From Eledone cirrhosa (Eukaryota), in assembly GCA_964016885.1 (NCBI GenBank), contig OZ024741.1, positions 35,588,001-35,652,000 of the forward strand: a stretch of DNA of 64,000 nt, in the 5' to 3' direction. The notes under the pieces are model-generated. The model ran no database searches, was not told where the DNA came from, and worked only from the letters and a program-made list of their open reading frames with translations. Shown here in pieces: positions 1 to 42,258 of this stretch (positions within the stretch are counted from its first letter, which is position 1; every line of letters starts with the position of its first letter). Made by a program: the position numbers and the translations under genes.

Positions 1-173
1 TATTGGTCAGGTCAAGGTTCGACCTGTGTCGATCTGGCCTGACTCTGGAATCAAAAGCTCGTTGGACCTCTGTTGTAGTAATGTCATTACTACATTGTCA
101 TTGCTAATAAATAGCGAAATGCACGTCACCAACCAACAAATGTAATGAAGGCTTAACCAATCGTCCTTGTATT
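1..173. mobile_element. Decayed copies of the HHR-A element in inverted arrangement
   Basis: 1-70 aligns with 12997-13065 with the core mutated; 111-173 (gcgaaatgcacgtcaccaaccaacaaatgtaatg...tcgtccttgt) matches the opposite strand of the HHR-A 3' half. Confidence 0.75.
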
Positions 174-11459: not shown

Positions 11460-12410
11460 TCTCTAATTAATCTGGCTAGATCTCTAAGCGAGACCAACTG
11501 AGTTCATGGATGTTATCCAGCCAACTTGCTCATGGTCTACTTTTAGGTCTCTTGCCACACAGCTTTACTCATAAAATCTATCCAGCAATTCTTTCCTTAA
11601 ACATTTTAATATCATGTTCATAATATCAGAGCTGTGATCTCTCAATTCAGAGAAGTAGTGGCTCTTCTTGGAGCAACACCCTGATCTCCAAGCTACACAT
11701 GCTATTGAGTAACATTACTGGAAAGATTTTTCTGAGAGATTCCATTTCAGCCATTTGTATTTGCAATCATATTCTTTCTGTCATTACCCAAGATTCATGA
11801 CCATAGGTAAACATCAAATTGAAGATAGTGAGTTTGGCTCCCCTATTCTGATGATCAACTGCTGAAGCTAGTACATTACTGAACTAGCTCCAGCAATTCT
11901 TGCATTTAATTCAGCATCCTGCCTTCCATCACTTGTGAAAACAAACTGCACAGGTTTCCTTGAGAGGATAAGTGTCTCAGTTTTCACAGCATTGATTCTC
12001 ATTCCTGCTATACAACATTCAGCAGCAAACCTATCAAGTGTAAGTTAGAGATCACCTGACAAGTTAAGTAATATCATGTCGTCTACCAGTACCAGCCAAC
12101 TGATCCTACACCCACTGGTCTTTATACCACTTCCAACCTGACTGTGCATGTCAATCCTGTTCATGAAGATTATGAACAGGAGAGGTGGCAGTATGCCCCT
12201 TGGTAGAGTCCAATACCCACATTGAATGGTTTCGACTTAGCACCATTTATCCACACACAAATACTCAGGCATTCATATAGCGACTTCAAGACAACAAGAA
12301 ATTGTCCGTCAATTCCATACTTCTGCAGAACTTTCCACATAAAGACCTGTGGAATGCAGTTATATGCCTTTTTGAGGTCTACAAAACAATCATACAATTT
12401 CTTGATGACC
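11460..12410 (-). mobile_element. Decayed RT fragment of a second RTE/Expander-like LINE family
   Basis: CFVDLKKAY, GL.QG..LSPLLFI, DGRQDAELNARI and YGHESWVMT-like motifs with frameshifts. Confidence 0.8.
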
Positions 12411-12539
12411 TGTGAATATTTAGTTGGCTGTGGTGCATCCGGGTTGAAAACCAGACTATTCATCAATTAGCTTGGACTTATCCCTACATCTCTCTGCGAG
12501 ACACTTAGTTATAACCAGGCTTTATTGAGGAGACTTAAC

Positions 12540-12750
12540 AAAGAAATTCCTGAAAGAGGGTTCAGAAGTGAGCAAATTTTAACAATTGGCAACTGGAATG
12601 TTAAAAACCCTTACAGGTAAGGAGCAGGAACTAGTAGAGGTCAGATGTTATCAGCTAGATATAGTCAGGGATCCTCAATAAAGTTCCATAGTTCTGATGC
12701 TGTAGATTTAAATGGAAGATGAAAACTCCGCTATTCAGGTATGGTTCCAG
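12540..12750 (+). mobile_element. APE-endonuclease N-terminal fragment of an RTE-like LINE
   Basis: attggcaactggaatgttaaa..cttacaggtaaggagcaggaactagtagag reads IGNWNVK..LTGKEQELVE, then YQLDIV. Confidence 0.7.
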
Positions 12751-12766
12751 AAATGATTGCTCAGGC

Positions 12767-12890
12767 AGTCTTGTTACTCTAGAGTTTCGTCTGTTTATCA
12801 CTGTTGTCAGACAAAAACTCACTTCGGATGACCCTGTGATAAACAGGCAAAACTCCCAAGTAACAAGACTCACTATTTAGCCTTAATAAA
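12767..12890. mobile_element. Inverted pair of decayed hammerhead-bearing repeats (PLE pseudo-LTR-like)
   Basis: Minus copy 12767-12817: TTGT CTGACAA..CAGAC GAAAC TCTAGA GTA ACAAGACT. Plus copy 12821-12870: CGGATGA CCCTGT GATAA ACAGGC AAAAC TCCCAA GTA ACAAGACT, then AATAAA and (TA)n. Confidence 0.65.
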
Positions 12891-12934
<44 letters not shown>

Positions 12935-12977
12935 AAATAAAACAAGGACGAGTGGTTACTCCATTACGTTTATTGGT

Positions 12978-13064
12978 AGGTGACGCGCGTTTCGCCATTG
13001 ATCAGCTCAAGGTTCGATCTGTATCGATCTAGCCTGACTCTGTAATCAATGGCTCATCAGACCC
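12978..13064 (-). ncRNA. Minimal type I hammerhead ribozyme (HHR-A)
   Basis: Minus strand reads GGGT-CTGATGA-GCCATTGAT...ATCAATGGC-GAAA-CGCGCG-TC/ACCT: intact core, 9-bp stem II base, palindromic stem III, GUC triplet; AATAAA a few nt downstream (12969-12974). Confidence 0.85.
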
Positions 13065-13095
13065 TGGATATATATTATATATATATATAGGTGGT

Positions 13096-13189
13096 GTCCA
13101 GCAGAAGCAAGGGGGACAACCGTCTATGCATTTCAGGCTTGACTGACCTTCATCAGGACAGTCCCTCCCACTGCTTGCAACTGCTGGAC
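13096..13189 (-). ncRNA. Minimal type I hammerhead ribozyme (HHR-B) with long stem I
   Basis: Minus strand reads ACTGTC-CTGATGA-AGGT cagtcaa GCCT-GAAA-TGCA-TA/GACGGT; stem I extends through GGGAC/GTCCC, GCAA/TTGC and GTCCAGCAG/CTGCTGGAC. Confidence 0.82.
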
Positions 13190-13281
13190 TTGAAAATAGT
13201 CGAGAACATATAGTTTTCTCGTCTGTGTAAATGAGGTGATTAATCTCATTTGCATATGAAGCTGCATAAGTTGGCTCAACT

Positions 13282-13643
13282 TATATATATTTATGTGTGT
13301 GTTAAGTAATTCCAAAGACAAAGCAAAGGAAAAAAGAGTGCTCTATGTATAGAACAGAGCTATTTAATTAAAAAGTGAACAACACAAAATATAACTACTC
13401 CATTACCAAAGGTTTCTGGATCCCAGACAATATTGATATACGTCTGGATCCAGACGTATATCAACATTGTCTGGGATCCAGACGTATATCAACATAGTCT
13501 GGGATCCAGAAACCTTTGGTAATGGAGTAGTTATATTTTGTGTTGTTCACTTTTTAATTAAATAGCTCTGTTCTATACATAGAGCACTCTTTTTTCCTTT
13601 GCTTTGTCTTTGGAATTACTTAACACACACATAAATATATATA
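13282..13643. repeat. ~360 bp near-perfect spacerless palindrome (foldback) in TA repeats
   Basis: Arms are reverse complements around GGATCC at 13446-13451; the right arm has a 28-bp tandem duplication (acgtatatcaacat[t/a]gtctgggatccag). Confidence 0.95.
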
Positions 13644-14043
13644 TATTGCACTTCAGGCTATTTATTTTAATATTTTCATTAAAAAAAAGAGGATATTTTC
13701 AATAAGATGGCATTGCCCAGAGAATTAAACACTCAGTTGGTGGCCAACTTATTGAATGAGAATGGTGGTAATTCTGTGCTAGAACTTACTATTCCAAACA
13801 CACTGTTTATATAATTCTTTATTGAAACAACAGGATTTTATTTTTACCCAAATGACAAAAGTAAAACATAAAAGAAATGAATTCTGTATTATTTCTTGAA
13901 AAACTAACAAAAGTAAATTACGACCAAAATTATGAAACTTTAAAATCTTTATATAACATGAAAAAAAAAACAATTCACACAACATTTCACGATTTCTAAA
14001 CTTCTTTCTCCACATGTTCATATGACATGAACAAAGCATTGCT

Positions 14044-16141
14044 TGTGTATGTGTATGTTTTTCTCTATGTACGTCACATGTGTGTGTATGTGTATCTTTT
14101 TCTCTATGTATGTTACATGTGTATGTATGTTTTTCTCTATGTACATCACATGTGTGTGCGCGTGTATGTGTACGTTTTTCTCTATGTACATTATGTATGT
14201 GTGTGTGTATGTGTATGTTTTTCTCTATGTACATCATGTGTGTGTATGTGTATGTTTTTCTCTATGTACATCATGTGCGTGTATGTGTATGTTTTTCTCT
14301 ATGTACATCATGTGTGTGTATGTGAATGTTTTTCTCTATGTACATCATATGTGTGCGTGTGTATGTTTTTCTCTATGTACATCACATATGTGTGTGTATC
14401 ATCATCATCATCATCACCGTTTTACGTCCGTTCTTCCACGCTAGCATGGGTTAGACGGGTTGTCCTGTTGTGGGCAGTGTCTGGTCGGCTGACCATGCCT
14501 TGCTCATACAGGAACTGATCTGGCTTGATTTCTACAGCTGGATGCCCTTCCTAACACCAACCTCATTTACAGTGAGTGCTGGGTGCTTTTTCGTGGCGCC
14601 TACACGTCCACTTTACAGTGTGGGCTGGGTGCTTTTTTGCCGTGGCACCTCCACGACCACCTTGCGGTGGGGGGGGGGCATATTGTTTATATGCTTCAGC
14701 ATGTACCCATGGGAGGTCGGGTACCCTATATTACTGCGTGACGCCAGAAGTCACGGTCGTGTGTCATTGACTTTGAGAGGTGTAGTTGGGTAAGGTCGGC
14801 TTTTATCACCTCATCCCAAGTCATCTTGGGTCTCCCCACTCCGCGGTTTCCATCAACTTCTAGTGCTCTGCACCTTTTTATGCAGCTGTCATCCTTCATA
14901 CGCATCACATGTCCATACCAGCGTAACCGCCTCTCCTGCACGCAGCATTTGATTCCTCTTATGCTCAGTCTCTCTCTCAATTCCTTTATGCTTTGTCGTT
15001 CACGTATATTACTGTTACACATCCATCGGAGCATGCAGGCTTCGTTTCTCTCTAATCTACGTAAGTCTTCCACCTTCAGCGCCCAGGTCTCACTACCATG
15101 CAACATCGCTGTTCGGATACACGCATCATACAGTCTGCCTTTCATTCTGAGGGAGAAGCCTTTTGCAGCTAGCAGTGGTAGTAGTTCCCTAAACTTCTTC
15201 CATCCCGTTCTTACCCTAGTTATTGTACTTTCTGAGCACCCACCTCCGTTGCTAATTCGGTCACCTAGGTAGCAGAAGCTGTCTACTGTTTCTACAGGGC
15301 CCTCCCAGAGATTGGTGGTACTTGTTTCCTGTGGCTGTTTGCTTGCTGTTTCAGCACAGCTGCTGCATGTGAATCCTACATTCTTAATTAAGCTTCCTGA
15401 GATCCCGCTACATCTCTTGTGTACCCATTGTTTGCATTTGGGGCAAAGAATGGAGTTCCTACCTACACCTTTCCTACATACTGAGCAAGGCCATTTCCCT
15501 GAGGGGATCTGGGTTCTGTTTTCTCGTCTACTTATAAGGACCTTAGTCTTTGTCATGTTGACTTTGAGGCCCTTTCTCTCTAGTCCCTGCTTCCAGGTTT
15601 GGAATTTATTCTCTAGTTCTACCATAGATTCAGCTATGAGTGCGAGGTCATCAGCATACAGGAGTTCCCATGGGCATCCGGTCTTAAACTCCTCCGTTAT
15701 TGCCTGCAGGACTATGATGAACAGGAGAGGGCTAAGAACAGAGCCCTGGTGGACCCCAACCTGTACGCTAAATTCCTCGCTATACTCATTGCCAATCCTA
15801 ACTTTGCTGACTGCTCCCCTATACATGGCTTGTACCGCTTTCACAAGCCATTCATCTACTCCTAGTTTTCTAAGAGCCCACCAGATTACTGTGTATGTGT
15901 ATGTTTTTCTCTATGTACGTCACATGCGTGTGTGTATGTGTATGTTTTTCTCTATGTTTGTTGCGTGTGTGTTTTCTCTATGTACGTCACATGTGTATGC
16001 GTATATTTTTCACTATGTACGCCACATGTGTGTGTGTGTGTTTTTCTCTATGTACATCATATGTGTGTGTATGTATGTGTATGTCTTTCTCTATGTACGT
16101 CACGTGTGTGTATGTGTGTATGTTTTTCTCTATGTACGTCA
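14044..16141. repeat. ~30-40 bp minisatellite (tgtatgtttttctctatgtacatca(tg)n) split by the RTE insertion
   Basis: Same unit at 14044-14398 and 15890-16141. Confidence 0.92.
14399..15889 (-). mobile_element. 5'-truncated RTE-clade LINE with uninterrupted RT C-terminal ORF, PHD-like finger, long 3' UTR and (ATG)n tail
   Basis: ORF 14726-15844: GVHQGSVLSPLLF, LYADDL, CSVC..CPKC..HKRC..CSSC, YLG, RLRWYGHVMR, RGVGRPKMTW; inserted into a minisatellite. Confidence 0.93.
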
Positions 16142-20790: not shown

Positions 20791-20880
20791 TCATGATTGA
20801 TTCTCTTTTATATTTTGTTCAATTTCTTCGGATTGTCTTTCATAGAATAAGAGTGCTGTTTCAGCTGTTCTTAATAAGGT
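20791..20880 (-). CDS. PDE9: PDE9-like terminal coding exon to TGA stop
   Basis: Strong pyrimidine tract ttcatttttctcag; phase 0 reading TLLRTAETALLFYERQSEEIEQNIKENQS*; position fits the last helix of the catalytic domain. Confidence 0.75.
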   Translation of the reverse strand, partial: TLLRTAETALLFYERQSEEIEQNIKENQS

Positions 20881-21261
20881 CTGAGAAAAATGAAGAAAGA
20901 AAAAAAGTAAAACTGTTAAAATTTATCTAAAGAGATAACAATAAATATATAGAAATTGACTAAGAATTTACATATAATTTAGTGTTATAAAGACATGAGG
21001 TTGAATCCATTTGAATAATATATCTTACATTATCACATGGATGTTTATGTAGGTGTGGCACGCCGCATATATTCTAGCCATTAGAAAAAACAATATGAAT
21101 GTTTCACCTTTGGAAAAGGGATGACTCAAGAAGAATATAGGGGCGGGGGGGGGGGGGGGGTACTATAATCTTTTGAGGGCTTAAGGTCTTAAAAGGATTC
21201 AATCTGGCCCTGACAAAACTATGTTATGAGTATGGCTGAGATATTTAATCATCATTATTAT

Positions 21262-21450
21262 TGGATTGGCAGTATCGGTAGAGAGTCGGACACCATGCTT
21301 TGAAACATAGAGTTACGTCCCTTTATGATCTGAGTTCAAATCCCGCTGAGGTTAACTTTGCCTTTCATCCTGACGGGGTCGATAAAATAAAGTACCAGTA
21401 ATGTACTGGGTAATTTCTGGCCTTGTGCCTAAAAATAGAAACAATTATTA
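21262..21450 (+). mobile_element. tRNA-derived SINE
   Basis: A-box-like tggcagtatcgg, B-box gagttcaaatccc, conserved body gcctttcatcc..ggggtcgataaaataaagtaccag, (ATT)n tail; other copies at about 173-290(+), 3105-3250(+), 7503-7680(-), 8495-8700(-), 9328-9520(-), 17080-17180(-), 36970-37157(-). Confidence 0.85.
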
Positions 21451-21598
21451 TTGGATTGGCAATCCACTGCCAATCCAATAATAATTGTTTCTACTTTAGG
21501 CACAAGGCCAGCAATTACCCAGTGTATTACTGGTACTTTATTTTATCGACCCCGTCAGGATGAAAGGCAAAGTTAACCTCGGCGGGATTTGAACTCAG
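21330..21598. repeat. SINE-derived inverted repeat with ~130-bp arms and a very short spacer
   Basis: 21330-21460 is the reverse complement of 21469-21598 with few mismatches. Confidence 0.92.
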
Positions 21599-22177
21599 GT
21601 CCCTTTACGTATCAGCCACTCAGGGGTCAATACCTTCCCCCAAAATTGCAGGCCTTGTGCCTAAATCAGAAACCATTATTATTAGCAATGGCAGTACTTT
21701 AAAAGCAATAAATATTTTTATCAGATTTCAGTATTGTCGAGTTCAAATCTCAAGTAGCTCCATCCTCTGTTGTTGAACTGTTGTTAGATACAACTTTTCT
21801 GTCTTTTAACTGTTCTTTAAAAGACATTTCAAATACTTTAATCTCCATTTGTCATTAACTGTCATGTTGTATGATGATGGTGATGATAATCCTTACAGTA
21901 GATGATGGTGACTATGATGAAGGTGATAATAGTGGTCATGATGATGATGATGTTTGATGGTGAATATGGTGGTTAATGATGATTGATGATGATGATGGTG
22001 GTGGTGACAATAACAATGATAATATTGAAGGTGACAAAGTTGGTTGCTGATGATGTGTCATAGTTCAGACAGTTTATATTGTATACAAATAGCATTCAAA
22101 ATCTCTCAATAAAAATGACTATAAAAAATGAAACAGGTATCATAAACTAAAGAAGTACAAAATTTTGGTCAACTTAC

Positions 22178-22324
22178 TACTGCTTTAGGGAAACACTGGC
22201 AGAGGGCCTTGAGCAAAGGTATCAAAATATTACTTATAAAGTAAACCTGAGATTTAGATTTCACATGAGTGTCTCTGTCCATGAAACTGGTCACAGGCAA
22301 CCCTTCAAGTTTTTCAGTGTCACT
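22178..22324 (-). CDS. PDE9: PDE9-like exon (invariant Gln and clamp Phe region)
   Basis: ttacag acceptor and GTAAGT donor; 147 nt, phase 0-0; SDTEKLEGLPVTSFMDRDTHVKSKSQVYFISNILIPLLKALCQCFPKAV. Confidence 0.94.
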
Positions 22325-23600
22325 CTGTAAAATAAAAAAATTAAAAGAATTAAAATTTACATTTTTCAAATAAACAATAACAAAACAAGCATTTTAACCC
22401 ACATATTTCTAATGAAAAACACTGATTATGATTTTCAAATAATTTTCAAAATAATCAAGAATTTTTAGGGATTTAGCAATATAACTAATTTTCTCATTTT
22501 CTGGTGTTTGAAACATAACTTAACAAAGGTGCTTATATAAAATAATGGCTAAATGTTTTCAGATACACCAGCATGGAGGAATGCACCTTAAATGAGATGA
22601 TGGTGGTGATGATAAACATTTTAACCCTTTTGTTACCATTCTAATGAAAGATTACCTATAATTTGCAGATAATTTTGAATTTAGAGGGATTTAGTAGTAT
22701 ACTTAATTTTCTCATTATTCATGTAAGAACATAAAGGTTCTTACATAAAATTATGCTGAAAGGTTTTTAGATAAATATAAACACTTTAAAATAAACAGTT
22801 TTGTATTGTAGAACCAGGGATGGTTTCTGGTGGTATGGTATCAAAGCGGTAGAACATAGTTCACCTACATCATAGGAAATCTCATAAGCTGATCTTCTCC
22901 AGAATGTGATATAGCTGTGGTCATTAAGCGTCCAGCCCAACTCTACTCTATTACCAGAAAATGTCCTGACGTGACCTCTACACACAAAGCAGAAAATCAC
23001 ATGACCTTCTTCCCTAGAGATCGTTGATGAAGAGAAGGAGAAAGCCTCCAATGCTATTGCTGCTTTCTGCCTTCCCTGCCATGACCTCACAGTTACCTGT
23101 CACTTTTGGCATAGCCCTCAAGCCCCATGACATCACTGACCCCTACACTTCTGGCTATTTCCCCTACTAAAGCAAATAAACCTTGTGGGGCCCTGTAACA
23201 GGCATAATCATGGAGTCCTTTTTGACACAATGTTTTACCGCCAGATGTCCTTCTTGATGCCAACACTTTTAGCTGCCATCTCTTTGGTTACAGGGATACA
23301 TTGTACCTATTCTAAACCGAATACACAAAATATACACAGCAAACCAACACCAACAACACCACCACTGCCAACACTGATGACATCACAAACACCAACACCC
23401 TGACCAACAACACCAACACCCTGATCAACAACACTACCAACATGACCAATAATCTCATTATCACTACCAACACCACCAACACCCCCACTCCCAACTACAA
23501 CGCCGCAACCAACTACAACACCACTACAACACCACCATTAACAACAACAACACCCTCAGCTCTATTATAAAAGGTCAATATTTAGAGGTTGAGAACTGAC

Positions 23601-23705
23601 CTGTGCAAAGAACTCATTTAGCAGACAATCCAGCCATACCTCAGCCACTGTAGTAGGTCGGAGTTCATTAGAAACATCTGCAACTTTTATAAGCACTGCC
23701 ATTAA
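23601..23705 (-). CDS. PDE9: PDE9-like exon (K.AD.SNE.RP motif); absent from the supplied ORF track
   Basis: ttttgtag acceptor and GTCAGT donor; 105 nt, phase 0-0; hand translation [35 protein letters not shown]. Confidence 0.95.
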
Positions 23706-24029
23706 CTACAAAATAGAGAGGAGAAAACGTCAAATAGAATTCTTGTCATATTTTACAAAACATTTGTAGAAGTAAAACAAACAGAAAGTAAAACTAGTAA
23801 AAAGTAATCCCTTGGCAGAGGTTTGGCTGTGTGGCCAAGGAGTTGGCTTCACAACCACATCGTTTGAGTTAGGTCCCATTGTGTGGTACCTTGGACAAGT
23901 GTAAAATTTGGTAGACAGAAGCAGATTCATTATCATCATTTAATGTCCACTTAAAGACAAAAGACAAGCATAGAAGGATTGGGAAAATGGGGGAAGTAGA
24001 GACTGATACTCAGTCACTAAAAGAGCAGC

Positions 24030-25995
24030 TAGATGTCAGGTATACTTAGCATGCAGAGAAGCTGAGAGTAGGAGGTTTGCCAATGTTTTGCAATGAGAGG
24101 ATCAGAGGTGTGAAGTGTTCCGCATTGCAAGGCAGTGTGTCAGTGTAAATCAAGATGTTGTTGGAGATAAGTGTGTCCGAAATGATACTGGTACACTTAG
24201 AGTCACTGATGCTCAGAAAAAGGAAGCCTGGAAATGTCATTACAAGAGACTGATGGATGTTGAGAATGAATGGGGGAGAGAAAAACTACTCCCAACAGAC
24301 TCAATAGAGGGACTAGCTATTGAGAATGATGACTATAAGGTCAAAGAGGCAATTAAGGAAATGATAAGACTGCTGGACTGTCAGGGATAGTTGCTGAGAT
24401 GCTGAAGGCATCAGGAGAAGTAGAAACTAAACTGGTTGCATGCATAGTCAATCAAGCTATATATGGTTCAGTCATACCCAAAGACTGGTTTAGCAGTATT
24501 CTTGTAAATTGCTACAAAGATAAAGGGGATGCTCTGCAGAGGAGCAATTATAGGGGCATAAAACTGATGGATCAGGTTATGAAAGTGACAGAAAGAGTGC
24601 TAACACAACTAATTAGAGAAAGAGTCAAATTAGATGAGATGCAGTTTGGTTTTGTGCCTGGGAAGAGTACAACAGATGCCTTCTTCTTAGTGAGACAACT
24701 ACAAGAGATGTTCTTAGAGAAGAATAAGCCATTATATTTAGCTTTTGTTGAAGTAGAGAAGGCCTTTGACAAAGTACCCCGATCTGTCATCAGGTGGTCC
24801 CTAAGGAAACTAGGTGTAGAGGTATGGCTTGTGATGACAGTGCAAGCTATGTACAGAGGACCTGTCAGTAAAGTGAGAGTAGGAATTAGTTTAGTGAGGA
24901 ATTCCAGATACAAGTAAGAATTCATCAGAGTTCGATCCTCAGTCCACTCTTATTCATTATAGTTCTCCAAGCCATAACAGAGGAGTCTAAGACTGGCTGC
25001 CCATGGGAACTTCTCTATGCTGATGATCTGGTACTTATAGCAGAATCAGTAGAGGAGCTAGAGAATAAATTGTGGTTATGGACACAGCAGTTGGAATCAA
25101 GAGGACTGACATTGAACCTAGCTAAGACAAAAGTGTTGATAAGTAGAAAAGAGGACAAAACTCTGTTTCCATCAGGGAAATGGCCATGTTCAATATGTAG
25201 AAAAGGAGTTGGCAAAAATTCTATAGAATGTACACAATGCTGATCTTGGGTACACAAGAGGTGTAGTAGTATAGCAGGCAAACTAACAGGAAGGGAAAAC
25301 TTCATATGTGGTAGATGTTCAGGAAAATTTTATAGTAGAAGTATCAGTGATAGGCACACTTTTCAAATGCAGCCAGGATCTATAGAGGTGGTTGATAGCT
25401 TCTGAATCCTAGGTGATCAGTTTAGCAAGAGAGGAGGATGCTCCGAGGTCATAGTATCTAGAATAAGGACAGGATGGAAGAAATTTAGGGAGATGCTTCC
25501 TCTGTTGACAACGAAGGGTTTCTCCCTACAAATGAAAGGTTGGTTATATGATGCCTGTGTGAGATGCATGATGCTGCATTGTAGTGAGATATCGGAGGCA
25601 ACTGCAGAGGATATGTGATGGCGGAGAGAAATGAAGCAACCATGCTCCGATGGATGTGTAATGTCAATGTAGTTAACGACCAAGCATAGATGAGTTGAGA
25701 GTGAAACTGTAGTGTGCAGGAGAGAAGACTATGTTGGTATGGCCATGTGATTCGCATGGAAGATGACCGCTGGGTAAAGAAATGCCAAGAAATCCCAGTG
25801 GAAGGAAGACGCAGTAGAAGAAGACCACGAAAAACATGGGCGGAGGTGGTGAGAGCTGACCTTAGATTGCTGAACTTTACAGAGGAGATGACGAGGGACC
25901 GTGACGAATGGAGAGATGCTGTGCTGAAGAAGACCCGTCTCACCCTTGCAAGTAGGGAAAAGCAGACATAAAATGGTGATCATGCTGATGATTTC
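24030..25995 (+). mobile_element. Decayed RTE-clade LINE (short 3' UTR subfamily)
   Basis: Frameshifted fragments SNYRGIKL, MQFGFVPGKSTTDA, KAFDKVPR, YADD, PHD-like Cys cluster, RLCWYGHVIRM; ATG-like tail. Confidence 0.92.
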
Positions 25996-26488
25996 CCTGC
26001 TAGCAACAGTGTGGCAGATTTTTATAGACCAAGTCAGTACTGAAGCAGGGCTACTGATCTCCCAGAGAAGCTGATTGTATCATGTAATGTCTGTGTGTGT
26101 AGGTCTTGTAACTTAGTGGATCATGGTTCAACAAAAAAAGAGATTGATAAAATAAGTACCAGATTTGAAAAAAATAAGTACTAGGGTTGATATAGTAGAC
26201 TATCCCGTTAACCTTTAGCACGCTATACATTTTTATAAATTGTTTCCCTTGACACTGCATTATGTATTAAGGGGAGATTACTCTATTGGAAACATAATGC
26301 GTCTATAACGTCCAGAAGATTAAAGCAGAGTCCCAGCATGGCTGCAGTTCATTGACGGAAATCAATAAAATACTAAGAGAGCAGAGAAAAGTGTCTAAGG
26401 AAATTGATGGAGATGTGTGGCAGTAGGAATTATACAGTAATTGTGTATTTGAGTATGTGCGTGTATTAGAGATATTTGTCAAACATAC

Positions 26489-26591
26489 CTGCAAACGGTG
26501 CTCTTTTTTATCAACATCAAACTCGAGCAAAATAGTCTCAAAATTTTTTAAGATGCTAAAATGGTTAGCCATGTCTGTACTTAAAATAGAG
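26489..26591 (-). CDS. PDE9: PDE9-like exon (IL.TDM..H motif)
   Basis: ttttcag acceptor and GTATGT donor; 103 nt, completes the split codon AG|C; SILSTDMANHFSILKNFETILLEFDVDKKEHRLQ. Confidence 0.93.
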
Positions 26592-27009
26592 CTGAAAAGA
26601 GAAACCAAAAGTGATATTTGTCAAACATGCTCCTTCTTCTGCACAAAATAAACTTAACCCATTTATTACCATATTTCTAATGAAATACTGCCCATGATTT
26701 GGAGATAATTTTGAAAATAATCAAGAATTTGGAGAGATTTAGTGAAATAACTTTCTCATTATTAAACTTTTCATTACCATATTTCTAGTGAAAGTAACAA
26801 ATTATTTTTAAACAATATAAACATTTTAAAATAGGCAGTTTTGTGCCATTAGAACCACGGCTAGTTTTAGGTAGTTTGGTATACAAAATGTTAAGCTATA
26901 GTTTGGAGCATTAATTAACAAAATTTTCTGATATAAAAATATGATAGAAAGTCTTTAAATAAACAAAAACATTTTAAAGAAAACAGCTTTGTATCACAGA
27001 ATCAAAAAG

Positions 27010-27480
27010 GATGACTGTATGACAGCTGTGTGTGAAGTGCAATGGTGCATGGTAGATAAAACATGAGCTGTTACTGCAGAGGAACTGCAGAGGACATGCA
27101 TAGACTGGAAAGAAATGAAGCAACCATGCTTCATTTGATGTGCAATGAAAATGTGAGAGAAAGACAGAGCTTGTGTGAGTTGAAGGAGAAGCTGGGTTTA
27201 AGAAGAATCCAAAGTGGTGTGTAGGAGATAAGACTGAATTGGTATAGACATGTGATGTGCATGGATATTGATTGGTGGGTGAAGAAGTGCCAGGAAATCC
27301 CAGTGGAGGAAAACCAAGAAAGACCTAGGGAGAGGTGGTGAGAGCTGATCTCAAATCATTGAGACTCACAAAGGAGATGATGAAGGAAAGTGGTGAATGG
27401 AGAGATGCTGTGCTGAAAAGACCTGTCCAACCCATAAATAGATGGAAAAATTGGAAGTAAAAATGATGATGATGATGATG
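27010..27480 (+). mobile_element. RTE LINE 3' fragment
   Basis: Similar to 25550-25990; (GAT)n tail. Confidence 0.8.
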
Positions 27481-27684
27481 AACCAGGGGTAGTTTTAACA
27501 GAAAGGTTAAAGGAAATTAAATCAAGTAATAACTTAACTGTTTATCATTTTAAAATAAATTATTACATGTTTGATACTGGTTTTGGGAATTATTACATTT
27601 TACTAGTTTAATAAGCAGAGAATTAGAGTTATTAGAGTATAGGGCAAAATACTTTGCGCTATTTATTTTGGCTCTATACACTTT

Positions 27685-27870
27685 GAGTTCAAATCTTGCC
27701 AAGATAACTTTGTTTTTCACACTTTTGAGATCAGTTCAAACCATACCAAGATCAACTTTATTTTTCACATTTTGGGGATCAGTTCAAATTTTGCCAAGAT
27801 CAACTTTGTTTTTCCTATTTTGGGGATCAGTTCAAATCTTACCAAAATCAACTTTGTTTTTCACATTTTC
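27685..27870 (+). repeat. Tandem amplification (4 copies, ~48 bp) of the SINE B-box segment
   Basis: agttcaaatcttgccaagatcaactttgtttttcac..ttttggggatc repeated. Confidence 0.8.
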
Positions 27871-29884
27871 AAATAAAGTAGCAGTTCAAGGCAGTAGCAA
27901 ATTAGTGGGATTGTTAATGTATCAAACAAGATGCTTTGCAGTATTTGCTCCAGCTTTCTACCTGAGTTTAAATCTTGCTGTTGCCTACCTGAGTGGTAGA
28001 CTTAGTCTATCACTTGGTTTAACAACACCACCTCACCCTTGGGTGTCTTTAGCGGAGCCTACTCTGTAAGCATTAAAGCCAGATTTCTGGTTTGAGAATA
28101 CCTTCCTTTCTGTCTCCTCCTTCAGTTTCAGAGGTCCTGAAAAGGATCAAAGGCACAGCCTGTCTATCCCTGACTAAACAGTAAAAATAAAAATAAAAAT
28201 TCTATAGGAATTTTCAGGTATCATTTTTGTTCTATATACACCTATCCTGGTGCTACAACTAAACTCACAGACCTTTATTTGTAACAAAAGACACACTTCA
28301 CAGAATGATGGGAATAGAACCAGTGATAAATGTTATGAAGAGAAATAGAATGAGATGGCTGGGTCATGTGTTGAGGAAAGATGAAAGTGATCTGATGAGA
28401 AAGAAATGATGGAAATGAATGTAAAAGGAAGTAGACATAGCTAAAGATGATGACGGAGGAAATAAAGGGATGTAGACAATAGGGATAAATGGAGAAGTTT
28501 GTCATGGGGTCATCATTAGCAGGGAAGATGGCCTTAAAATGCTTGTTGTTCTTGATGATGATGATGTTTGACTGGTAATTATTTTATTGACTCTGATGAA
28601 GGTGGATGAAGGTCAGTGAAATAACAAACCTGCCAGAATATGGACTTAATGGTAAAAGCTGGTGATGATGATGATGATAAAAGGCATTCCAGGCCCGACT
28701 ATTTAAACTTTCTAGGAGTATATAGGACTAAATTATTTAATATCTCCTTTGCTTCTTAACTCAACTGATACCAGCTAACTTGAAATTTACCCTGGTTCTC
28801 TCATACAAAAACTGTGTTTTTTCTTTTTTAATCTAAACCTCTTCCATCATGAATTTATAGAGGAACCTTTAGAGTTTTTCATTAGAAATGGGTAATTAGA
28901 GAAGAGTTAAGATGTGGTTTATGTGCTTTAGAAGATCCCTTATTTGCTTGTATCTTTATGCAGTTACACAATGAAGTGTTTTTTAATTCTAATTGCAAGA
29001 AGAACTGGCCTGATTCTATTTTTAATTTTCCTGCTAATCTTCAGCATTAAAAATATAAAACAACATTATAGAAAGAAGCAGACAACAAAATTAGCTTTCA
29101 TTCCACTTGTTAAATCTAAATGTGTAATGAAGGATTAAAGTAATCATATAACAGGAGTGATGGTATAATGGTATAGTGACATTATGGAATAATTGGATTA
29201 AACAATGTCATTTCATTTGGACGATGCTGTTATCATCATTAATTTTCCACAGTAATTACAATCTCTGAGATTATGTTGATTAGGAAAATAGTAACTGAGT
29301 GGTAGAAGTTGTATTCAAAGTAGAAGCAAGAAAACAACAACAGCTACAACAGTAACTACATCAATAACAACAACAGCAACTACAGCATCAACAACAAGAA
29401 TAACAAGCTTCTCTGTTATACTTACACTGCTAACTATAGCAGCCAAATCCCCTCTAATCAGACCACATTGTCTTTCTTCCATTACTATACTTCTAATGAA
29501 AGACACTTCATATGATTTTCAAATAATTTTGGAAATAGAAATTTGGAGGGATTTAAGCAATATAATTAAATTTCTCATTATTAAGTTGGTTTTGGGAACA
29601 TAGCTTAACAAAGATTCTTACATGAAACACGATGGACAGTTTTTAGATGAAGATACACACTTTAAAGCAAACAACTTTATATCATAAAACCATGGGCACT
29701 TTCAGGAGATTTGGTATCATCATCATTTAATGTCCATCTTCCATGCTAGCATGGGTTAAGAAGTTAAAAACCAAAGGATATATTAGATGATATAATCCTA
29801 GATATACAATACCTGAATAAAAAGATCTGAGACAGTCATAATTAGAATGTATTTAATCACAGGTCTAGCATTGCTCTATTGGGT

Positions 29885-30200
29885 GTGTTGAGAGAAAAAA
29901 CTGTGTGTAAGAAGAATTAGATGTAGTGTGCAAGAGAGAAGATTGCCTGGTGCAGGCATGTAATGTGTATAGATGATGAATATTAGGTGACGAAATTCCA
30001 GGAATTCCCAATAGAAAGATGTTGTAGACATAAACTGAGGAAAAGTTGGGCAGAGGTAGTGAAAGTGGATCTCAGGATGTTGAACTTCACAAAGGAGATG
30101 GTAAAGGAAAGGGACAAGTGAAGGGACAGTGTACTACAGAAGCCACATCTAACACATGCAAGCATAGAAAATAAAAATGGATGTAAAAGTGATGATGATA
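29885..30200 (+). mobile_element. RTE LINE 3' fragment
   Basis: Similar to 25700-25990; (GAT)n tail. Confidence 0.75.
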
Positions 30201-30225
30201 AAACAACAAGAGAGAAATGTCTTAC

Positions 30226-30380
30226 CTAATAACACCTTGACGGATAATAGTGAATTGTTGTTGAGTTACATTCTTCAACAGTTCATATTTTTCTATTATT
30301 TGGAAAGCCACATCACAGTGATGGTTCTCTAATGGTGACATGTCATTATAAGTCCGTGCCAGTATGGTATGTGCATGCAC
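30226..30380 (-). CDS. PDE9: PDE9-like exon (YND.SPLENHH motif)
   Basis: cttcag acceptor and GTAAG donor; 155 nt, phase 0-2; VHAHTILARTYNDMSPLENHHCDVAFQIIEKYELLKNVTQQQFTIIRQGVI. Confidence 0.95.
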
Positions 30381-31511
30381 CTGAAGTGGAGAGAATAACA
30401 CATTGTTAACCATATATATAAAAATAATGATTAATTTGGTTAAAATGAAATCTGGAAAGATATGGTTGAAAATGCTAGAGAAAATAGAATTGAATAAAAA
30501 CTTTTCTGTAACTATTATTATTATCCATTCCTAACATTTTCAGTTATTAACTCAAAACATCCTGTAGTGATTCAGCAGAAAATATCTAAAAGCTAACTTA
30601 TTATTCAAATGTTTATAGTATCTTTATTAGTGAACAGAGCATTGTAAAATTTTGCAGTAAACTAAAGTAAAAACTTCAATTTTTAATGAGATGCAGTCAT
30701 ACTGCTATTTTATACTTTTCAAAAATGTCTTCCTAATGTGGTTTCATGTGGTACAGGTTGTTAAGAATTAAACATTTTTAATTAAAATCAAAAACTACAG
30801 AATGTCAAATTCAAAAATAAGTGTTTTTTCCATCCAGTCTGAAAATACAAATATCCTTAGTATTGGTGATCTACACGATAAACACACCCTGTAAAGTAGT
30901 TCGGGATAAGAAGGAAACCCAGCCATAGAAAAAATAAATAAAGAGTTAGGAGGACTCTTTGACTGTGTGAAAGACATGTCAATCTTCCTTGTGTTGATGC
31001 TATGATAAAAGGCATTTGGTACAGTTCTGGATGGTATGCAAATGAGATGAAGACTACTGATGTATTTGAATAGTCAGTACAGTACAGGAACATATGTGAG
31101 ATGTAAACCCCCAACTCATCTGAGAAGTCAGTAGCTCTGCTTCAGTATTGACTCAGTCTGTCAAGACCTGTCCAACCCTTGCTAGCATGGAAGCCAGACG
31201 TTACAAGATGATAAATTTTCATTGTCATCATTGCCATCATCGTCGTTACACCTGCTTTTCTATGCTGGTATTGAAGCAGATATAGCAGTGCTATAGGTGT
31301 GTTTAATCACAGGGGACTTGATACTAAACAACAATAACATAAATACTGGATTAAAGGAAAGATTAAATGTAGCTTTAAATGTAACTTTCTTTTTCTACTT
31401 AGTAGATCTGGAGGAAAGAGCAGTGACCATAACGTTTGCAGGCTCCAGGAAACTAATGAGGTTGATGTCAATGTCATCTCTAAACCATTGCAAGTTATAA
31501 GATTCAATAAT

Positions 31512-31818
31512 TTTAACCCTTTTGATACCAAACTGCCTGAAGCCACCTCTGGTTCTATGACACAAAACTGTTTGTTTTGAAATATTCTCATATTTCCAAT
31601 GAAAGGCACTGCTTATGATTTACAAATATATATTTTTTAAGTAATCAATAATTTGGAGGGATTTAGTAATACAACTAATTAACTTTCTGTGGAACTTAAC
31701 TAAGGTTATTTATAAAATTGCAATAGGTTTTCAGACAAATATAAATACTTAAAAAAAAATAGCTTTGTATCATGGAACCAGGGGTGGTTTCAGCTAGTTT
31801 GGTAACAAAAGGATTAAA
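31512..31818. mobile_element. TTAA-flanked MITE with ~70-bp imperfect TIRs (second family)
   Basis: ttaacccttttgataccaaactgcc.. / ..gctagtttggtaacaaaaggattaa; related partial copies near 2922-3330, 22394-22850, 26655-27000, 29490-29720. Confidence 0.7.
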
Positions 31819-33036
31819 ATGCCAATATATTACACATCTGAATGGTTAACTGTAGAAAAAGCATCTAGCCGCATAAACACTTGCTCTGAAAGAGAAATGG
31901 CCCATTTCACTTGTTAGGAGTTCAACTAATGTTTGAGAATATCACTATCCCTTAGGCCTTCTGTCATTCACTTTAACCCGTCCATTACCATATTACTAAT
32001 GAAAAACACTACCTTTCATTTTCATATAATCAGACCCGGTATCAGAATGAGTACAGCTTTCATTATGTAAAATCTCCCCATTTTGGGGCACTTTTTTTCA
32101 TAGTACTCCTTGCTTAGGTTTTTAGAGGTTGGCAGGTCTGTACAATCTTGAAAATCCTCATTATCTTGCTGTGCTGGTTGCATGGATCATCATGACTCTC
32201 CTACATCCATTGCTCATGGCAGGTCCTCCAGATTGCACTCAGCATCCTTACAGCAAGAATTTGGAGAGATTTAATAATATAACTGACTTTCTCATTATTA
32301 ACCTGATAGAAATAACAGCTAAATATATCCTCAATCCAACCCTATCATTTTTAAAAAGTAAGAACACACTGAAAAATGTACTCCTAGCTAAACAGAAACG
32401 ATGGGATGGTCAATGTTAGAATGTCTCTTATGATGGGACTGCTCAATCATGTCTGATCTGTGGATAAAGAACAATGTCAACAACATTTGTTTCCATAAAT
32501 TGTGAAGAAAATATCCAAATCATCATCATCATTGTTTTTATGTTCATTTTCTTTTTCATGCTGGCATGATGTGGATGAGACTTCATGAAGTAGTGTTTCT
32601 ATGGTTGGATGCCCTTCCTGACACCAACCCACTGCAGGACATAAATAAATGTCACTGGTTGCTTTCATCATCATCATTTTACATCCGCTTTATGTTGTCG
32701 ATATGAAGATGTATACAGTAAACTGACACACATATAAACATGCATACATAATGGGCTTCTTTCTAGTTTCCATTGACTAAGTTCACTGACAAGATATTGG
32801 TCAGCCCAAAACTTTAGTAGAAGACACATGCCTAATGTGCTATTGAGTATGATGAAATCTCATATCATGAGCTGCAAAGTAAAATTCTTAATCACAGTCA
32901 TGCCTGCACCTATACACACACACATACATACACACACACACACATATATATATATATACATACACACACATATATACATAAATGTATATATATATACATG
33001 CACACACATATATACATAAACGTATATATATATATA

Positions 33037-34045
33037 TCATCATCATCATCGTTTAACGTCCCTGTTCCACGCTTGCATGGGTTTGGACGGGGGTTTTCCC
33101 ACTTGAGGCAAGAGTGGTTGTCTTGCTCGCATAGGACTGTCTGGCAGGTTTTCTACAGCTGGATGCCCTTCCTAACACCAACCACATTTACAGTGTGGGA
33201 CTGGGAGGTTTTTACCGTGTTGCCTACATGGCCACATTACAGCGTGGACTGTGTGTTTTTTTGTCGTGACACCTACACGATCTCATTTGTTTCGGCCTGG
33301 ATGTTGTGGCACCAACATAACTTTGCATTGAAGGGGGCGGTGTGGATGGGGTGGGACGGGAGTGTATTTTGTTAGAGATGCCTACTGACTAGTAGGTTTT
33401 ACTTTGTATTTAGGTAAGGCGGGTCTTCTCTGTTACTGAGTACCGCCAAAGGTCTCAGTCCAGTGACATTGTCTTGGAGAGGTGTAAGTGTGTGAGGTCG
33501 GAATTTATCAGCTCGTCCCAGGTTTTCCTGGGTCTGCCTACTCCGTGGCTACCATCTATCTTTATTGGCCTGCACTTTGTTATACAGCTGTCGTCTTTCA
33601 TGCGCATCACGTGACCATACCAACGTAGCCTTCTCTCGAGTAAACAACATCTGATCCCTCTTATTTCTAATTTTTTCCTTAGTTCGTTTATGCTTTGCCG
33701 TTCACGTATATTACTATTACACATCCAGCGGAGCATGCAAGCTTCGTTTTTCTCTAGTCTGCGTATATCCTCTGCACACAATGCCCAGGTCTCACTGCCA
33801 TGCAACATTGCTGTTCGTATGCAGGCATCATACAACCTGCCTTTCATTTTTAGGGAGAACCCTTTAGCGGCTAATAGTGGTATAAGCTCTCTGAACTTTT
33901 TCCATCCAGTTCTAACTCTAGCTACTGTACTTTCAGAGCACCCTCCCCCACTGCTGATTTTGTCACCCAGGTAACGGAAGCTGTCCACTATTTCTATAGA
34001 ACCCTCTGCGCAATTGAAAGAGTTAGTATTTTGTGGGCACTTGCT
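33037..34045 (-). mobile_element. 5'-truncated RTE LINE with long 3' UTR
   Basis: ORF 33455-33988 closely similar to 14726-15844; followed by the same type of 3' UTR and (ATG)n tail. Confidence 0.92.
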
Positions 34046-34163
34046 GCTACTTACACATACACAATATATACATACTCATACATATACACACACACACTCA
34101 CACATATATATATAATCTGATAACTTCCACCTCAAAAAAGATAGCCCATGATGAAGTACTTAC

Positions 34164-34286
34164 ATGATAAAAATTGTTAAAACCAGAATGTTCCAGATCA
34201 TGACAGATTGCAGCTAGAAGTAATGCGAGGATCTCTTCTTCAGAAAATATGCTGCACAAATCTAAAAGCCAAATAAGGCAATACAA
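34164..34286 (-). CDS. PDE9: PDE9-like phosphodiesterase, internal coding exon with HD metal-binding motif (first exon seen in window)
   Basis: ttccag acceptor and GTAAGT donor; 123 nt, phase 0-0; LYCLIWLLDLCSIFSEEEILALLLAAICHDLEHSGFNNFYH resembles the class I PDE AAICHDLDHPGYNN segment as I recall it from PDE9A. Confidence 0.93.
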
Positions 34287-34856
34287 CTGGAAAAGAAACA
34301 AAAACGACATGAAAACTCCAAGAATTATTACAACAGTTAATAAATTAAAATATTTCATCATTTTACGTCTGCTTTTCCGTGACCAAGGCACCCTATCTTA
34401 GGAGATCTCAAGGACTCCAAGACTTTTCTCCAAGACTGTAACGGAAGAGAAATAATTCCTAGTCTTACGTGTTATCTTTACACTCTGGGAGGAGGAAGAG
34501 AGAGACTGTGAGAGGGAAGGACAGAGAGAAAGATATGGAAGAGTAGAGAGCAAAGGGATGGAGGGATAGAGAAAAAAGCTGGAGGGGAGAGGGAGGAGGG
34601 AGAAAGATGTGGGTTTCCAGTTACGATTCAAGAAATTTGGGCTTCTAATAAAATATATAAAATACTTCACATATTGAACACATACATATATATATAGGAC
34701 AGTGAATTAGCAGTACCATTAGAACATTGGATATTATACTTTGCAGTATTTGTTCTAGATCTCTGTAAATTAGGTTCAAATCTCTCAACTTTGCCATTCA
34801 TCCTTTAAGGTTGATAAACAAAACACTAGTCCAGTATTGGGGTATATACATATATA

Positions 34857-39789: not shown

Positions 39790-42258
39790 TTTGTTGGTCA
39801 AGTCCATGGTAAGAGAATGAAGTATCTGTTGGTCAAGTCCATGGTAGGAGAGTGAAGTGTCTCTGTTGGTCAAGTCCATGGTAGGAGAGTGAAGTGTGTC
39901 TGTTGGTCAAGTCCATGGTAGGAGAGTGAAGTGTGTCTGTTGGTCAAGTCCATGGTAGGAGAGTGAAGTGTCTCTGTTGGTCAAGTCCATGGTAGGAGAG
40001 TGAAGTGTGTCAGTTGGTCAAGACCATGGCAAATGAGTGAAGTGTGTCTCTCTTGGTCAAGTCCATGGTAGGAGAGTGAAGTGTGTCTGTTGGTCAAGAC
40101 CATGGCAAGAGAGTGAAGTGTGTCTCTCTTGGTCAAGTCCATGGTAGGAGAGTGAAGTGTGTCTGTTGGTCAAGACCATGGCAAGTGAGTGAAGTGTGTC
40201 TCTCTTGGTCAAGTCCATGGTAGGAGAGTGAAGTGTGTCTGTTGGTCAAGACCATGGCAAGAGAGTGAAGTGTGTCTCTCTTGGTCAAGTCCATGGTAGG
40301 AGAGTGAAGTGTCTCTGTTGGTCAAGTCCATGGTAGGAGAGTGAAGTGTGTCTCTGTTGGTCAAGTCCATGGCAGGAGAGTGAAGTGTGTCTCTCTTCGT
40401 CAAGTCCATGGCAACAGAGTGAAGTTTGGCTGTTGGTCAAGTCCATGGCAAGAGAGTGAAGTGTGTCTCTGTTGTTGAAGTCCATGGTAGGAGAGTGAAG
40501 TGTGTCTCTGTTGGTCAAGTCCATGGCAACAGAGGTGAGTGTGTCTCTGTTGGTCAAGTCCATGGTAGGAGAGTGAAGTGTGTCTATTGGTCAAGACGAT
40601 GGCAAGAGAGTGAAGTGTCTCTGTTGGTCAAGTCCATGGTAGGAGAGTGAAGTGTGTCAGTTGGTCAAGACCATGGCAAGTGAGTGAAGTGTGTCTATTG
40701 GTCAAGATCATGGCAAGTGAGTGAAGTGTGTCTCTCTTGGTCAAGTCCATGGTAGGAGAGTGAAGTGTGTCTCTGTTGGTCAAGTCCATGGTAGGAGAGT
40801 GAAGTGTGTCTATTGGTCAAGACCATGGCAAGTGAGTGAAGTGTGTCTCTCTTGGTCAAGTCCATGGTAGGAGAGTGAAGTGTGTCTCTGTTGGTCAAGT
40901 CCATGGTAGGAGAGTGAAGTGTGTCTGTTGGTCAAGACCATGGCAAGTGAGTGAAGTGTGTCTCTCTTGGTCAAGTCCATGGTAGGAGAGTGAAGTGTCT
41001 GTTGGTCAAGTCCATGGCAAGAGAGTGAAGTGTGTCTGTTGGTCAAGACCATGGCAAGAGAGTGAAGTGTGTTTGTTGGTCAAGTCCATGGTAGGAGAGT
41101 GAAGTGTCTCTGTTGGTCAAGTCCATGGTAGGAGAGTGAAGTGTGTCTCTGTTGGTCAAGTCCATGGCAGGAGAGTGAAGTGTGTCTCTCTTCGTCAAGT
41201 CCATGGCAACAGAGTGAAGTTTGGCTGTTGGTCAAGTCCATGGCAAGAGAGTGAAGTGTGTCTCTGTTGTTGAAGTCCATGGTAGGAGAGTGAAGTGTGT
41301 CTCTGTTGGTCAAGTCCATGGCAACAGAGGTGAGAGTGTCTCTGTTGGTCAAGTCCATGGTAGGAGAGTGAAGTGTGTCTATTGGTCAAGACCATGGCAA
41401 GAGAGTGAAGTGTGTCTATTGGTCAAGACCATGGCAAGAGAGAGAAGTGTGTCTGTTGGTCAAGTCCATGGCAAGAGAGTGAAGTGTGTCTCTGTTGGTC
41501 AAGTCCATGGTAGGAGATTGAAGTGTGTCTATTGGTCAAGACCATGGCAAGAGAGTGAAGTGTGTCTGTTGGTCAAGTCCATGGCAAGAGAATGAAGTGT
41601 GTCTCTGTTGGTCAAGTCCAGTCCATGGTAGGAAAGTGAAGTGTGTCTGTTGGTCAAGTTCATGGCAAGAGAGTGAAGTGTGTCTCTGTTGGTCAAGTCC
41701 ATGGTAGGAGAGTGAAGTGTGTCTATTGGTCAAGACCATGGCAAGAGAGTGAAGTGTGTCTGTTGGTCAAGTCCATGGCAAGAGAGTGAAGTGTGTCTCT
41801 GTTGGTCAAGTCCATGGTAGGAGAGTGAAGTGTGTCTATTGGTCAAGACCATGGCAAGAGAGTGAAGTGTGTCTGTTGGTCAAGTCCATGGCAAGAGAGT
41901 GAAGTGTGTCTCTGTTGGTCAAGTCCAGTCCATGGTAGGAAAGTGAAGTGTGTCTGTTGGTCAAGTTCATGGCAAGAGAGTGAAGTGTGTCTCTGTTGGT
42001 CAAGTCCATGGTAGGAGAGTGAAGTGTGTCTATTGGTCAAGACCATGGCAAGAGAGTGAAGTGTGTCTGTTGGTCAAGTCCATGGCAAGAAAGTGAAGTG
42101 TGTCTCTGTTGGTCAAGTCCATGGTAGGAGAGTGAAGTGTGTCTCTGTTGGTCAAGTCCATGGTAGGAAAGTGAAGTGTGTCTGTTGGTCAAGACCATGG
42201 CAATAGAGTGAAGTGTGTCTGTTGGTCAAGTCAATGGTAGGAGAGTGAAGTGTGTCTC
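39790..42258. repeat. 37/39-bp minisatellite (~2.5 kb) with internal block duplications
   Basis: tgttggtcaagtccatggtaggagagtgaagtgtgtc(tc); identical spurious ORFs 795 bp apart (40285/41080) and near-identical ones 307 bp apart (41536/41843). Confidence 0.97.

Follow-up and report, generated by a model that had tools for sequence, protein, structure and literature searches.

The window, i.e., the whole 64-kb stretch of DNA that was analysed, carries on its minus strand a highly structured segment which a first-pass annotation had regarded as the monomer of a small non-coding retroelement, approximately 190 bp in length, bounded by TA repeats and equipped with a hammerhead ribozyme (HHR-B). 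A second hammerhead (HHR-A) is located nearby in the same orientation, and the locus thus raises the question of whether HHR-B is a genuine ribozyme motif, to what kind of repeat it belongs, and whether the two hammerheads constitute a single unit from which a small circular RNA could be released.

Anatomy of the HHR-B hammerhead

When both strands of the window were scanned with a hammerhead descriptor, exactly two motifs emerged, HHR-B and HHR-A, the former of which lies within a repeat designated family B. The visible part of this repeat and the elements of the ribozyme, in the order in which they are read on the minus strand, are as follows:

13091..13285, minus strand: the portion of family B that is visible here (44.6% GC, non-coding)
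13157..13189, minus strand: 5' strand of the extended helix I of HHR-B (26 predicted pairs in total, three internal loops)
13150..13156, minus strand: HHR-B core CUGAUGA, with N7, a variable position, at 13152
13135..13149, minus strand: HHR-B helix II (4 bp) and the 7-nt loop 2, which ends in A13139
13125..13134, minus strand: GAAA (13134-13131), helix III (AUGCAU, 13131-13126) and N17, an A
13096..13124, minus strand: 3' strand of the extended helix I, with U1.7 at 13118

C3 corresponds to position 13156 and N17 to A13125, and the predicted cut is at 13125/13124. Helix II is composed of the pairs A-U, G-C, G-C and U-G (13149-13146 with 13135-13138), while helix III consists of the single pair A15.1-U16.1 and a palindromic UGCA tetraloop. 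Helix I starts with six to seven contiguous base pairs and continues as a looped extension, which brings the predicted pairing to 26 pairs overall (13157-13189 with 13124-13096). A CUGANGA core, GAAA, the UH dinucleotide and three helices, with helix I open, are all present, and HHR-B is, as judged from its sequence, a complete and canonical type I hammerhead motif for which cleavage is predicted. All components named by the first-pass annotation, i.e., the core, the 4-bp stem II, GAAA, AUGCAU, the AUA triplet and the cut, were recovered at the same positions, as was a stem I that is interrupted and longer than 20 bp; the two further hairpins and the octamer that it had described were found at 13201-13221, 13229-13251 and 13248-13255, respectively.

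The same annotation had cautioned that the AUA triplet, or the A-U pair that closes stem II, might disable the ribozyme. Neither concern applies and both were rejected: three natural hammerheads have AUA ahead of their cut, and this triplet is active, though slowest in a purified-RNA assay (PMC1636495), and in other copies of family B the closing pair is swapped from A-U to G-C. The bases expected to make tertiary contacts are also present, namely U1.7 (13118), which is predicted to lie inside a G-U pair, and the last A of loop 2 (13139). These two bases represent a pair that has been tied to fast hammerhead cleavage (PMC11875169), and loops 1 and 2 of HHR-B may interact through them.

A motif of this kind might have arisen through fortuitous folding of repetitive DNA. 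An Rfam search left HHR-B unscored, while it assigned HHR-A 14.3 bits against Hammerhead_1, which is below the cut-off of 34, and otherwise returned hairpin-type matches. Furthermore, the active fold of HHR-B is not its lowest-energy fold: in the latter the core is mispaired and the pair probability of helix II is ~0.05, and the active fold is less favourable by 3.5 kcal/mol if helix III is left open and by 8.9 kcal/mol if the monomer is closed. In 100 dinucleotide-shuffled versions of the first 46 kb, on the other hand, the mean number of loose hammerhead matches was 0.04, and a motif with the short palindromic helix III of HHR-B was present in none of them. The unit around HHR-B is more stable than 199 of 200 shuffles (z -3.39), with the ribozyme half of B reaching a z of -4.0. 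Together with the retention of the core and the double-sided changes across B copies described below, these results rule out the chance reading for the most part, and we consider it scarcely credible.

Copies of family B and their sequence variation

Contigs of four of nine sequencing runs were mapped onto positions 12930-13300 at 80% likeness, a filter that favours similar copies; two of these runs (X1 and X4) represent organism A, while X5 and X6 represent organisms B and C, respectively. The nine runs listed include none of RNA, a fact without bearing on whether the family is expressed. To the combined stretch of A and B mapped 6822 contigs in X1, 153 in X4, 1393 in X5 and 15 in X6, and single B variants were common to 105 to 109 X1 contigs; summed contig depth was not taken as copy number. 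Family B is a many-copy, non-coding repeat family in the contigs of three organisms.

Among the 40 of 112 variant rows listed, the majority changes in the X1 ribozyme comprise U to C at N7 (85% of depth), conversion of the helix II wobble to C-G (99%), conversion of a helix I wobble to C-G (85%) and replacement of one loop-2 base (65%), while each of the other changes in the HHR-B core accounts for at most 2.6% of depth. The majority ribozyme changes in B copies hit positions that are either free or at which pairing is improved. N17 alternates between A and C, with C representing 4%, 18%, 53% and 58% of depth across the four runs, and the triplet across copies is AUA or AUC.

Variants from these 40 of 112 rows were also assigned, by depth sums, to eight long records of X4, X5 and X6, while the X5 change at 13137 was taken from the mapping, in which it is carried by all covering contigs. 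Four of the eight records (13, 15, 21 and 22) display nine double-sided helix II changes, which affect three of the four pairs and include the A-U to G-C swap of the closing pair in records 13 and 15. Because the B records are related copies, these nine changes perhaps represent three or four events. A core mutation is present in each of records 15, 21 and 22, i.e., in three of the four co-varying records. The conserved core and co-varying helices that would be expected of a type I hammerhead are seen, yet in the other four of the eight records (14, 20, 27 and 28) one helix II pair seems to be disrupted. The picture is that of a ribozyme which is selected in source lineages and decays in individual copies.

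Depth along the repeat is far from uniform. At 13151-13189 it amounts to 7-15 thousand in X1 as compared to 135-213 thousand on both sides (a 10- to 30-fold drop), and in X5 it is ~50 at the HHR-B core versus ~4000 at the octamer-bearing module further 5' (~80-fold lower). Several contig joints skip 73-119 nt, starting at 13119 or 13134. Relatives of B with a different or deleted middle clearly exist, while private changes of the window copy may explain part of the depth drop.

Motif scans for B returned no matches among viral contigs. The only match among genome contigs (20 of 21 letters) lies within an apparent bacterial coding sequence and was dismissed as a chance match, while two matches among metagenome contigs were rejected as B relatives because they have no blastn homology to B. 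The latter two (L001, 399-441, and L002, 1647-1683, minus) are unrelated hammerhead-like motifs with the same UGCA palindrome, of which that of L001 has an extra base after A9 and that of L002 precedes a charged ORF. We take this ORF to recall a Penelope N-terminus; an ESM Atlas search with it gave no match.

Extent of family B and the foldback element

The boundaries of the B copy are defined by the following features:

13069..13090, unstranded: TA microsatellite separating B and A
13277..13648, unstranded: foldback element with TA ends and 175-nt arms, complementary at 171 of 175 positions
13645..13658, minus strand: likely resumption of family B beyond the foldback (14-letter motif, 2 mismatches)

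Of the TA bounds originally proposed for the unit, the one at the 3' end stands, as B abuts (TA)n there, but the TA at the 5' end is the edge of the foldback. The proposed length of ~190 bp does not hold either, since other copies run past 13283-13286 in common non-TA sequence. Loose ends beyond this point possess one common non-TA consensus in all four runs and, among those listed, were found in 40 + 65 contigs of X1, 1 of X4, 51 of X5 and 1 + 2 of X6. Family B extends 5' of 13285 and its unit is longer than 195 bp.

The foldback is likely to have been inserted into B, because a motif of the 5' continuation of B resumes just past it at 13645-13658. This 14-letter motif was picked after the match was seen, and the site is one of only two within 2 mismatches of it in 46 kb; a 19-letter motif of the same continuation had no match in the window at up to 3 mismatches. 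The foldback itself measures 372 bp, its arms are 98% complementary, it contains an internal 28-nt tandem and it has an 11-mer in common with the 3' tail of A. It possibly represents a MITE, or else the inverted end of a Penelope-type element.

No tandem arrangement of B is present in the window. A wrap-around B joint was likewise absent among the 15 of 25 joints listed, where it could have been missed given that the B unit extends beyond the mapped stretch, and no second B piece is listed for record 15 despite its 372 further letters. ARAGORN, applied as a test for a SINE head, found no tRNA gene in the window, the true 5' end of B lying outside its visible part.

Genomic surroundings

Six minus-strand exons of a spliced cyclic nucleotide phosphodiesterase gene are located at 20794-34304, on the same strand as B, and end ~7.5 kb upstream of it. 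An intronic position of B within this gene was considered and rejected, the last detectable coding exon being 20877-20794 (E 0.036). A decayed LINE-type reverse transcriptase fragment is found on the minus strand at ~11830-12640, with further reverse transcriptase remnants at 24357-25243 and, accompanied by a PHD-like finger, at 14726-15910. The LINE remnants of the window resemble those of octopus. The fragment at 11830-12640 was rejected as a parent of A or B, as it resembles the other LINE reverse transcriptase of the window and is separated from A and B by a hairpin and (TA)19.

An imperfect inverted repeat of ~105 nt (12767-12870) lies just beyond (TA)19. Satellite DNA is represented by a 38-bp array at 47838-64000 (more than 400 copies, ~97% identity), which extends off the window, and by arrays of 37-39 bp at 39792-42258 and of 48 bp at 46261-47521. 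The window also holds a mir-1994 hairpin that scores above the Rfam cut-off. This microRNA is lophotrochozoan. At the present locus (1167-1425), ~6 tandem copies of a 36-nt repeat derived from its 5' arm lie upstream, and the precursor is thus preceded by additional star-arm copies. The hairpin, the spliced exons, the LINE remnants and the satellites identify the window as animal DNA, and the microRNA and the octopus-like LINE remnants make a mollusc the likely source.

Family A and the 143-nt spacing

HHR-A belongs to a repeat designated family A, which is represented in the window by two copies:

12932..13068, minus strand: 5'-truncated family A copy with HHR-A (core 13060-13054, cut after 12982)
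12894..12931, unstranded: (TA)19 at the 3' end of A
2..173, inverted arrangement: second, decayed A copy, with no B beside it

HHR-A has C3 at 13060 and N17 at 12982, an 11-bp helix II and a 4-bp helix I; it is without an extra base after A9 and is followed just downstream by AATAAA. In the contigs, A continues past 13049 in a common sequence that is neither TA nor B, with loose ends beyond this position, among those listed, in 100 contigs of X1, 7 of X4 and 110 of X5. In the second copy the 5' half of A occupies 2-68 and the 3' half is inverted at 103-173, the core being mutated, and 2-68 carries A's own 5' continuation as in other A copies. Such an inverted arrangement is described as typical of Penelope-like insertions (10.1101/2021.04.23.441226, PMC4209133). 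Family A is independent of B, because it has its own 5' continuation that recurs at 2-68 without B, and HHR-A is likely the truncated 3' end of a separate Penelope-type family with the same TA target as B. At position 4 of the core the window copy has the standard U, whereas the consensus of other A copies is C there in each of the three runs listed, and the A-like segment at 12995-13020 has the greatest depth of the whole mapped stretch.

According to the first-pass annotation, HHR-A and HHR-B are co-oriented and could together release a 143-nt RNA able to circularise. Their co-orientation and the 143-nt distance between the cuts were confirmed (N17 at 13125 and 12982), the fragment is more stable than shuffles (z -2.63), and read-through transcription is possible from the phosphodiesterase gene, whose detectable minus-strand coding exons end ~7.5 kb upstream. 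Moreover, the TA spacer was skipped in the contig mapping (7 joints and 52 loose ends there were left out), and an A-B linkage at this point could escape view. A two-ribozyme unit that works in this manner is nonetheless not supported. In the contigs, as at window positions 2-68, A usually continues 5' in its own sequence, and none of the 32 contig pieces listed, with the TA-spacer rows left out and a further 8464 pieces lying beyond the listing, belongs to a record holding both A and B. Records 9, 18 and 19, which contain A, have 271-318 letters toward B and no B piece, while the B record 15 has 154 letters toward A and no A piece.

The structural evidence points in the same direction. The helix III palindromes of B and A measure 6 and 8 nt, respectively, and do not swap; one arm of the cross makes a single pair, and a swapped dimer is impossible. 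Helix I of HHR-A is predicted to be unformed, with a pair probability below 0.01 in the downstream fragment. A circle joined at 12982-13124 would pair at two of seven helix I positions and would rebuild no ribozyme, and therefore could not propagate as a retrozyme. We hence regard the two-ribozyme unit as very improbable. Since A is a different family on the same TA target, nested insertion is likely to have produced the 143-nt spacing by accident, and the circle is probably accidental; read-through from the phosphodiesterase gene might yield an incidental 143-nt product.

The octamer module of family B

The part of B that lies 5' of the ribozyme forms a module of its own:

13201..13285, minus strand: 5' module of B, which contains the octamer ATGCAAAT (13255-13248) together with three short hairpins (z -2.87)

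Within B, depth peaks at 13216-13283 in X1, X4 and X5 and is there, in X5, ~80 times that of the ribozyme core; in organism B, no other part of B is shared as widely as the module. The octamer is expected 0.012 times per 192 nt. An octamer is also included in the promoter of newt satellite 2. This promoter is of the snRNA type, as cited in PMC2220036, and offers a parallel for the view that B is mainly a promoter-bearing short element, driven by its octamer, in which the hammerhead represents one of several exchangeable middles. That view appears distinctly unlikely: the depth profile may partly mirror private changes of the window copy, retrozymes seem to lack promoters according to a review (PMC7761336), and the finding that 13248-13255 has no variant row among the 40 of 112 listed does not establish conservation of the octamer across copies. 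A more elaborate proposal, which we put forward as a long shot, is that B belongs to a mollusc retrozyme lineage which is equipped with an snRNA-type promoter of its own, based on the octamer, and in this respect converges on newt satellite 2, which spreads in TA microsatellites in the form of solo copies, and which can cleave only if two transcripts pair in trans through AUGCAU.

Proposed mode of spread of family B

The explanation that we favour, with a probability of roughly 0.6, is that the B copy of the window is an interrupted solo member of a non-coding repeat present in many copies, whose mode of action is likely that of an animal non-LTR retrozyme and which is probably spread by Penelope-like enzymes. 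By analogy with known families, tandem source copies of B would be transcribed and RNA of unit length released between two cuts, the transcripts being predicted to self-cleave, likely as dimers by means of the palindromic helix III. A host ligase would then circularise this RNA, and a Penelope-type reverse transcriptase and endonuclease would insert the resulting copies at (TA)n. Solo monomers would represent dispersed offspring, with the window locus being a solo and probably dead-end copy. Tandem transcription, dimer cutting, circularisation by ligase and Penelope-type copying have been described for such systems (PMC7229834, PMC7761336, bioRxiv 10.64898/2026.07.22.740005), as have solo retrozyme monomers and a Penelope origin (bioRxiv 10.64898/2026.07.22.740005), and (TA)n is reported to be a favoured target of Penelope-type elements (10.1101/2021.04.23.441226). 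Activity of B should not be assumed, however, because only one of nine predicted retrozyme dimers cleaved and eight did not in bioRxiv 10.64898/2026.07.22.740005.

The visible 195 bp of B combine a canonical type I hammerhead with a non-coding repeat of less than 50% GC, which is in keeping with retrozymes. A reverse transcriptase ORF was not found in this visible part, beyond which the family extends in the 5' direction. Retrozymes are also expected to occur head-to-tail with a period of 150-450 bp, while the window copy and the long contigs listed are single; as no tandem arrays were seen, we class B as a candidate retrozyme monomer, on the strength of its likely mode of action. The initial description of a 'monomer of a small non-coding retroelement' consequently survives in that B is many-copy and non-coding, with a canonical hammerhead whose helix II co-varies in some copies, and fails in that the copy is interrupted and the unit exceeds 190 bp.

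Some of these observations would also suit a different origin, in which a longer Penelope-like retrotransposon, either autonomous or truncated, would have B as its 3' terminal repeat (pLTR). Other B copies extend 5' of 13285 in common sequence, the 3' end of B adjoins (TA)n, no tandem B was seen among the contig pieces and joints listed, and most Penelope hammerheads are, according to PMC4209133, dispersed single motifs of truncated elements. The anatomy of HHR-B is canonical, however, and departs from the minimal hammerhead of Penelope pLTRs, with its long helix II, short helix I and extra base after A9, although some Penelope elements of plants do possess canonical motifs (PMC4209133). Furthermore, two ORFs over B were without a match in a Pfam search, and the 400 bases past the foldback hold short ORFs only, bar one that enters from an adjoining minisatellite. 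A Penelope ORF was not found among 30 of the 64 window ORFs of at least 100 aa, nor among 10 further ORFs, and none of the window ORFs scanned encodes a reverse transcriptase with GIY-YIG that is linked to A or B. We therefore consider a pLTR origin of B unlikely and retain the retrozyme-like solo copy as the preferred reading.

Comparison with known systems

Canonical metazoan hammerheads have been described as having a helix I of 6 bp, a helix II of 4 bp and a helix III of 1-2 bp with a palindromic loop, and as being active as dimers, while in the minimal hammerheads of Penelope elements helix II measures 7-8 bp, helix I is short and A9 is followed by an extra base (PMC4209133). HHR-B fits the canonical metazoan type, and HHR-A is closer to the Penelope minimal type. 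Penelope pLTR hammerheads (PMC4209133) share with the present locus a palindromic helix III, dispersed truncated copies, TA targets and inverted pairs, and family A fits this system well in its long helix II, short helix I and inverted copy (2-173). Family B differs from it in that helix II has 4 bp, helix I is long and no extra base follows A9; in addition, neither A nor B has a linked ORF among the window ORFs scanned.

The animal non-LTR retrozymes resemble B in that they are short, non-coding, structured and many-copy repeats of less than 50% GC with a canonical type I hammerhead (PMC7229834; 10.64898/2026.07.22.740005), for which solo monomers as well as a mussel, i.e., molluscan, example have been described. 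They are known as tandem arrays and circular RNA, whereas B is known here from contigs and single copies, with a unit that exceeds 195 bp. B further differs from them by its octamer-bearing 5' module and by its helix III, which is of the weak amphibian type, the usual invertebrate type having two pairs.

The closest structural parallel to this helix III is found in the axolotl HHR_Amex1, where it is the same as in HHR-B, i.e., one pair and a palindromic tetraloop, and where the monomer was 6% cleaved in 1 h and the dimer much more efficiently (PMC7229834). Newt and axolotl satellite 2 (HHR_Amex1) also shares with B an internally looped extended helix I and a predicted need for dimers (PMC7229834; PMC6155905), and possibly an snRNA-type promoter element. 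Unlike B, satellite 2 is a ~330-bp amphibian tandem repeat, and its triplet differs from the AUA or AUC of B; the comparison is one of structure.

No description of family B was found in the full-text literature searched, Repbase, Dfam and most subscription papers lying outside this search, and B is likely a new family within the known class of animal hammerhead repeats. The class itself is not new, since many-copy type I hammerhead repeats are known in many animals and hammerheads have already been counted in a cephalopod, with 235 Hammerhead_1 loci reported for the giant squid genome (PMC6962438). Within this class, the weak amphibian-type helix III of B is a modest oddity for an invertebrate. 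Family B, which shares its TA target with a Penelope-type end, provides a test case for whether animal retrozymes are moved by Penelope-like elements, as well as for whether any animal retrozyme carries its own promoter.
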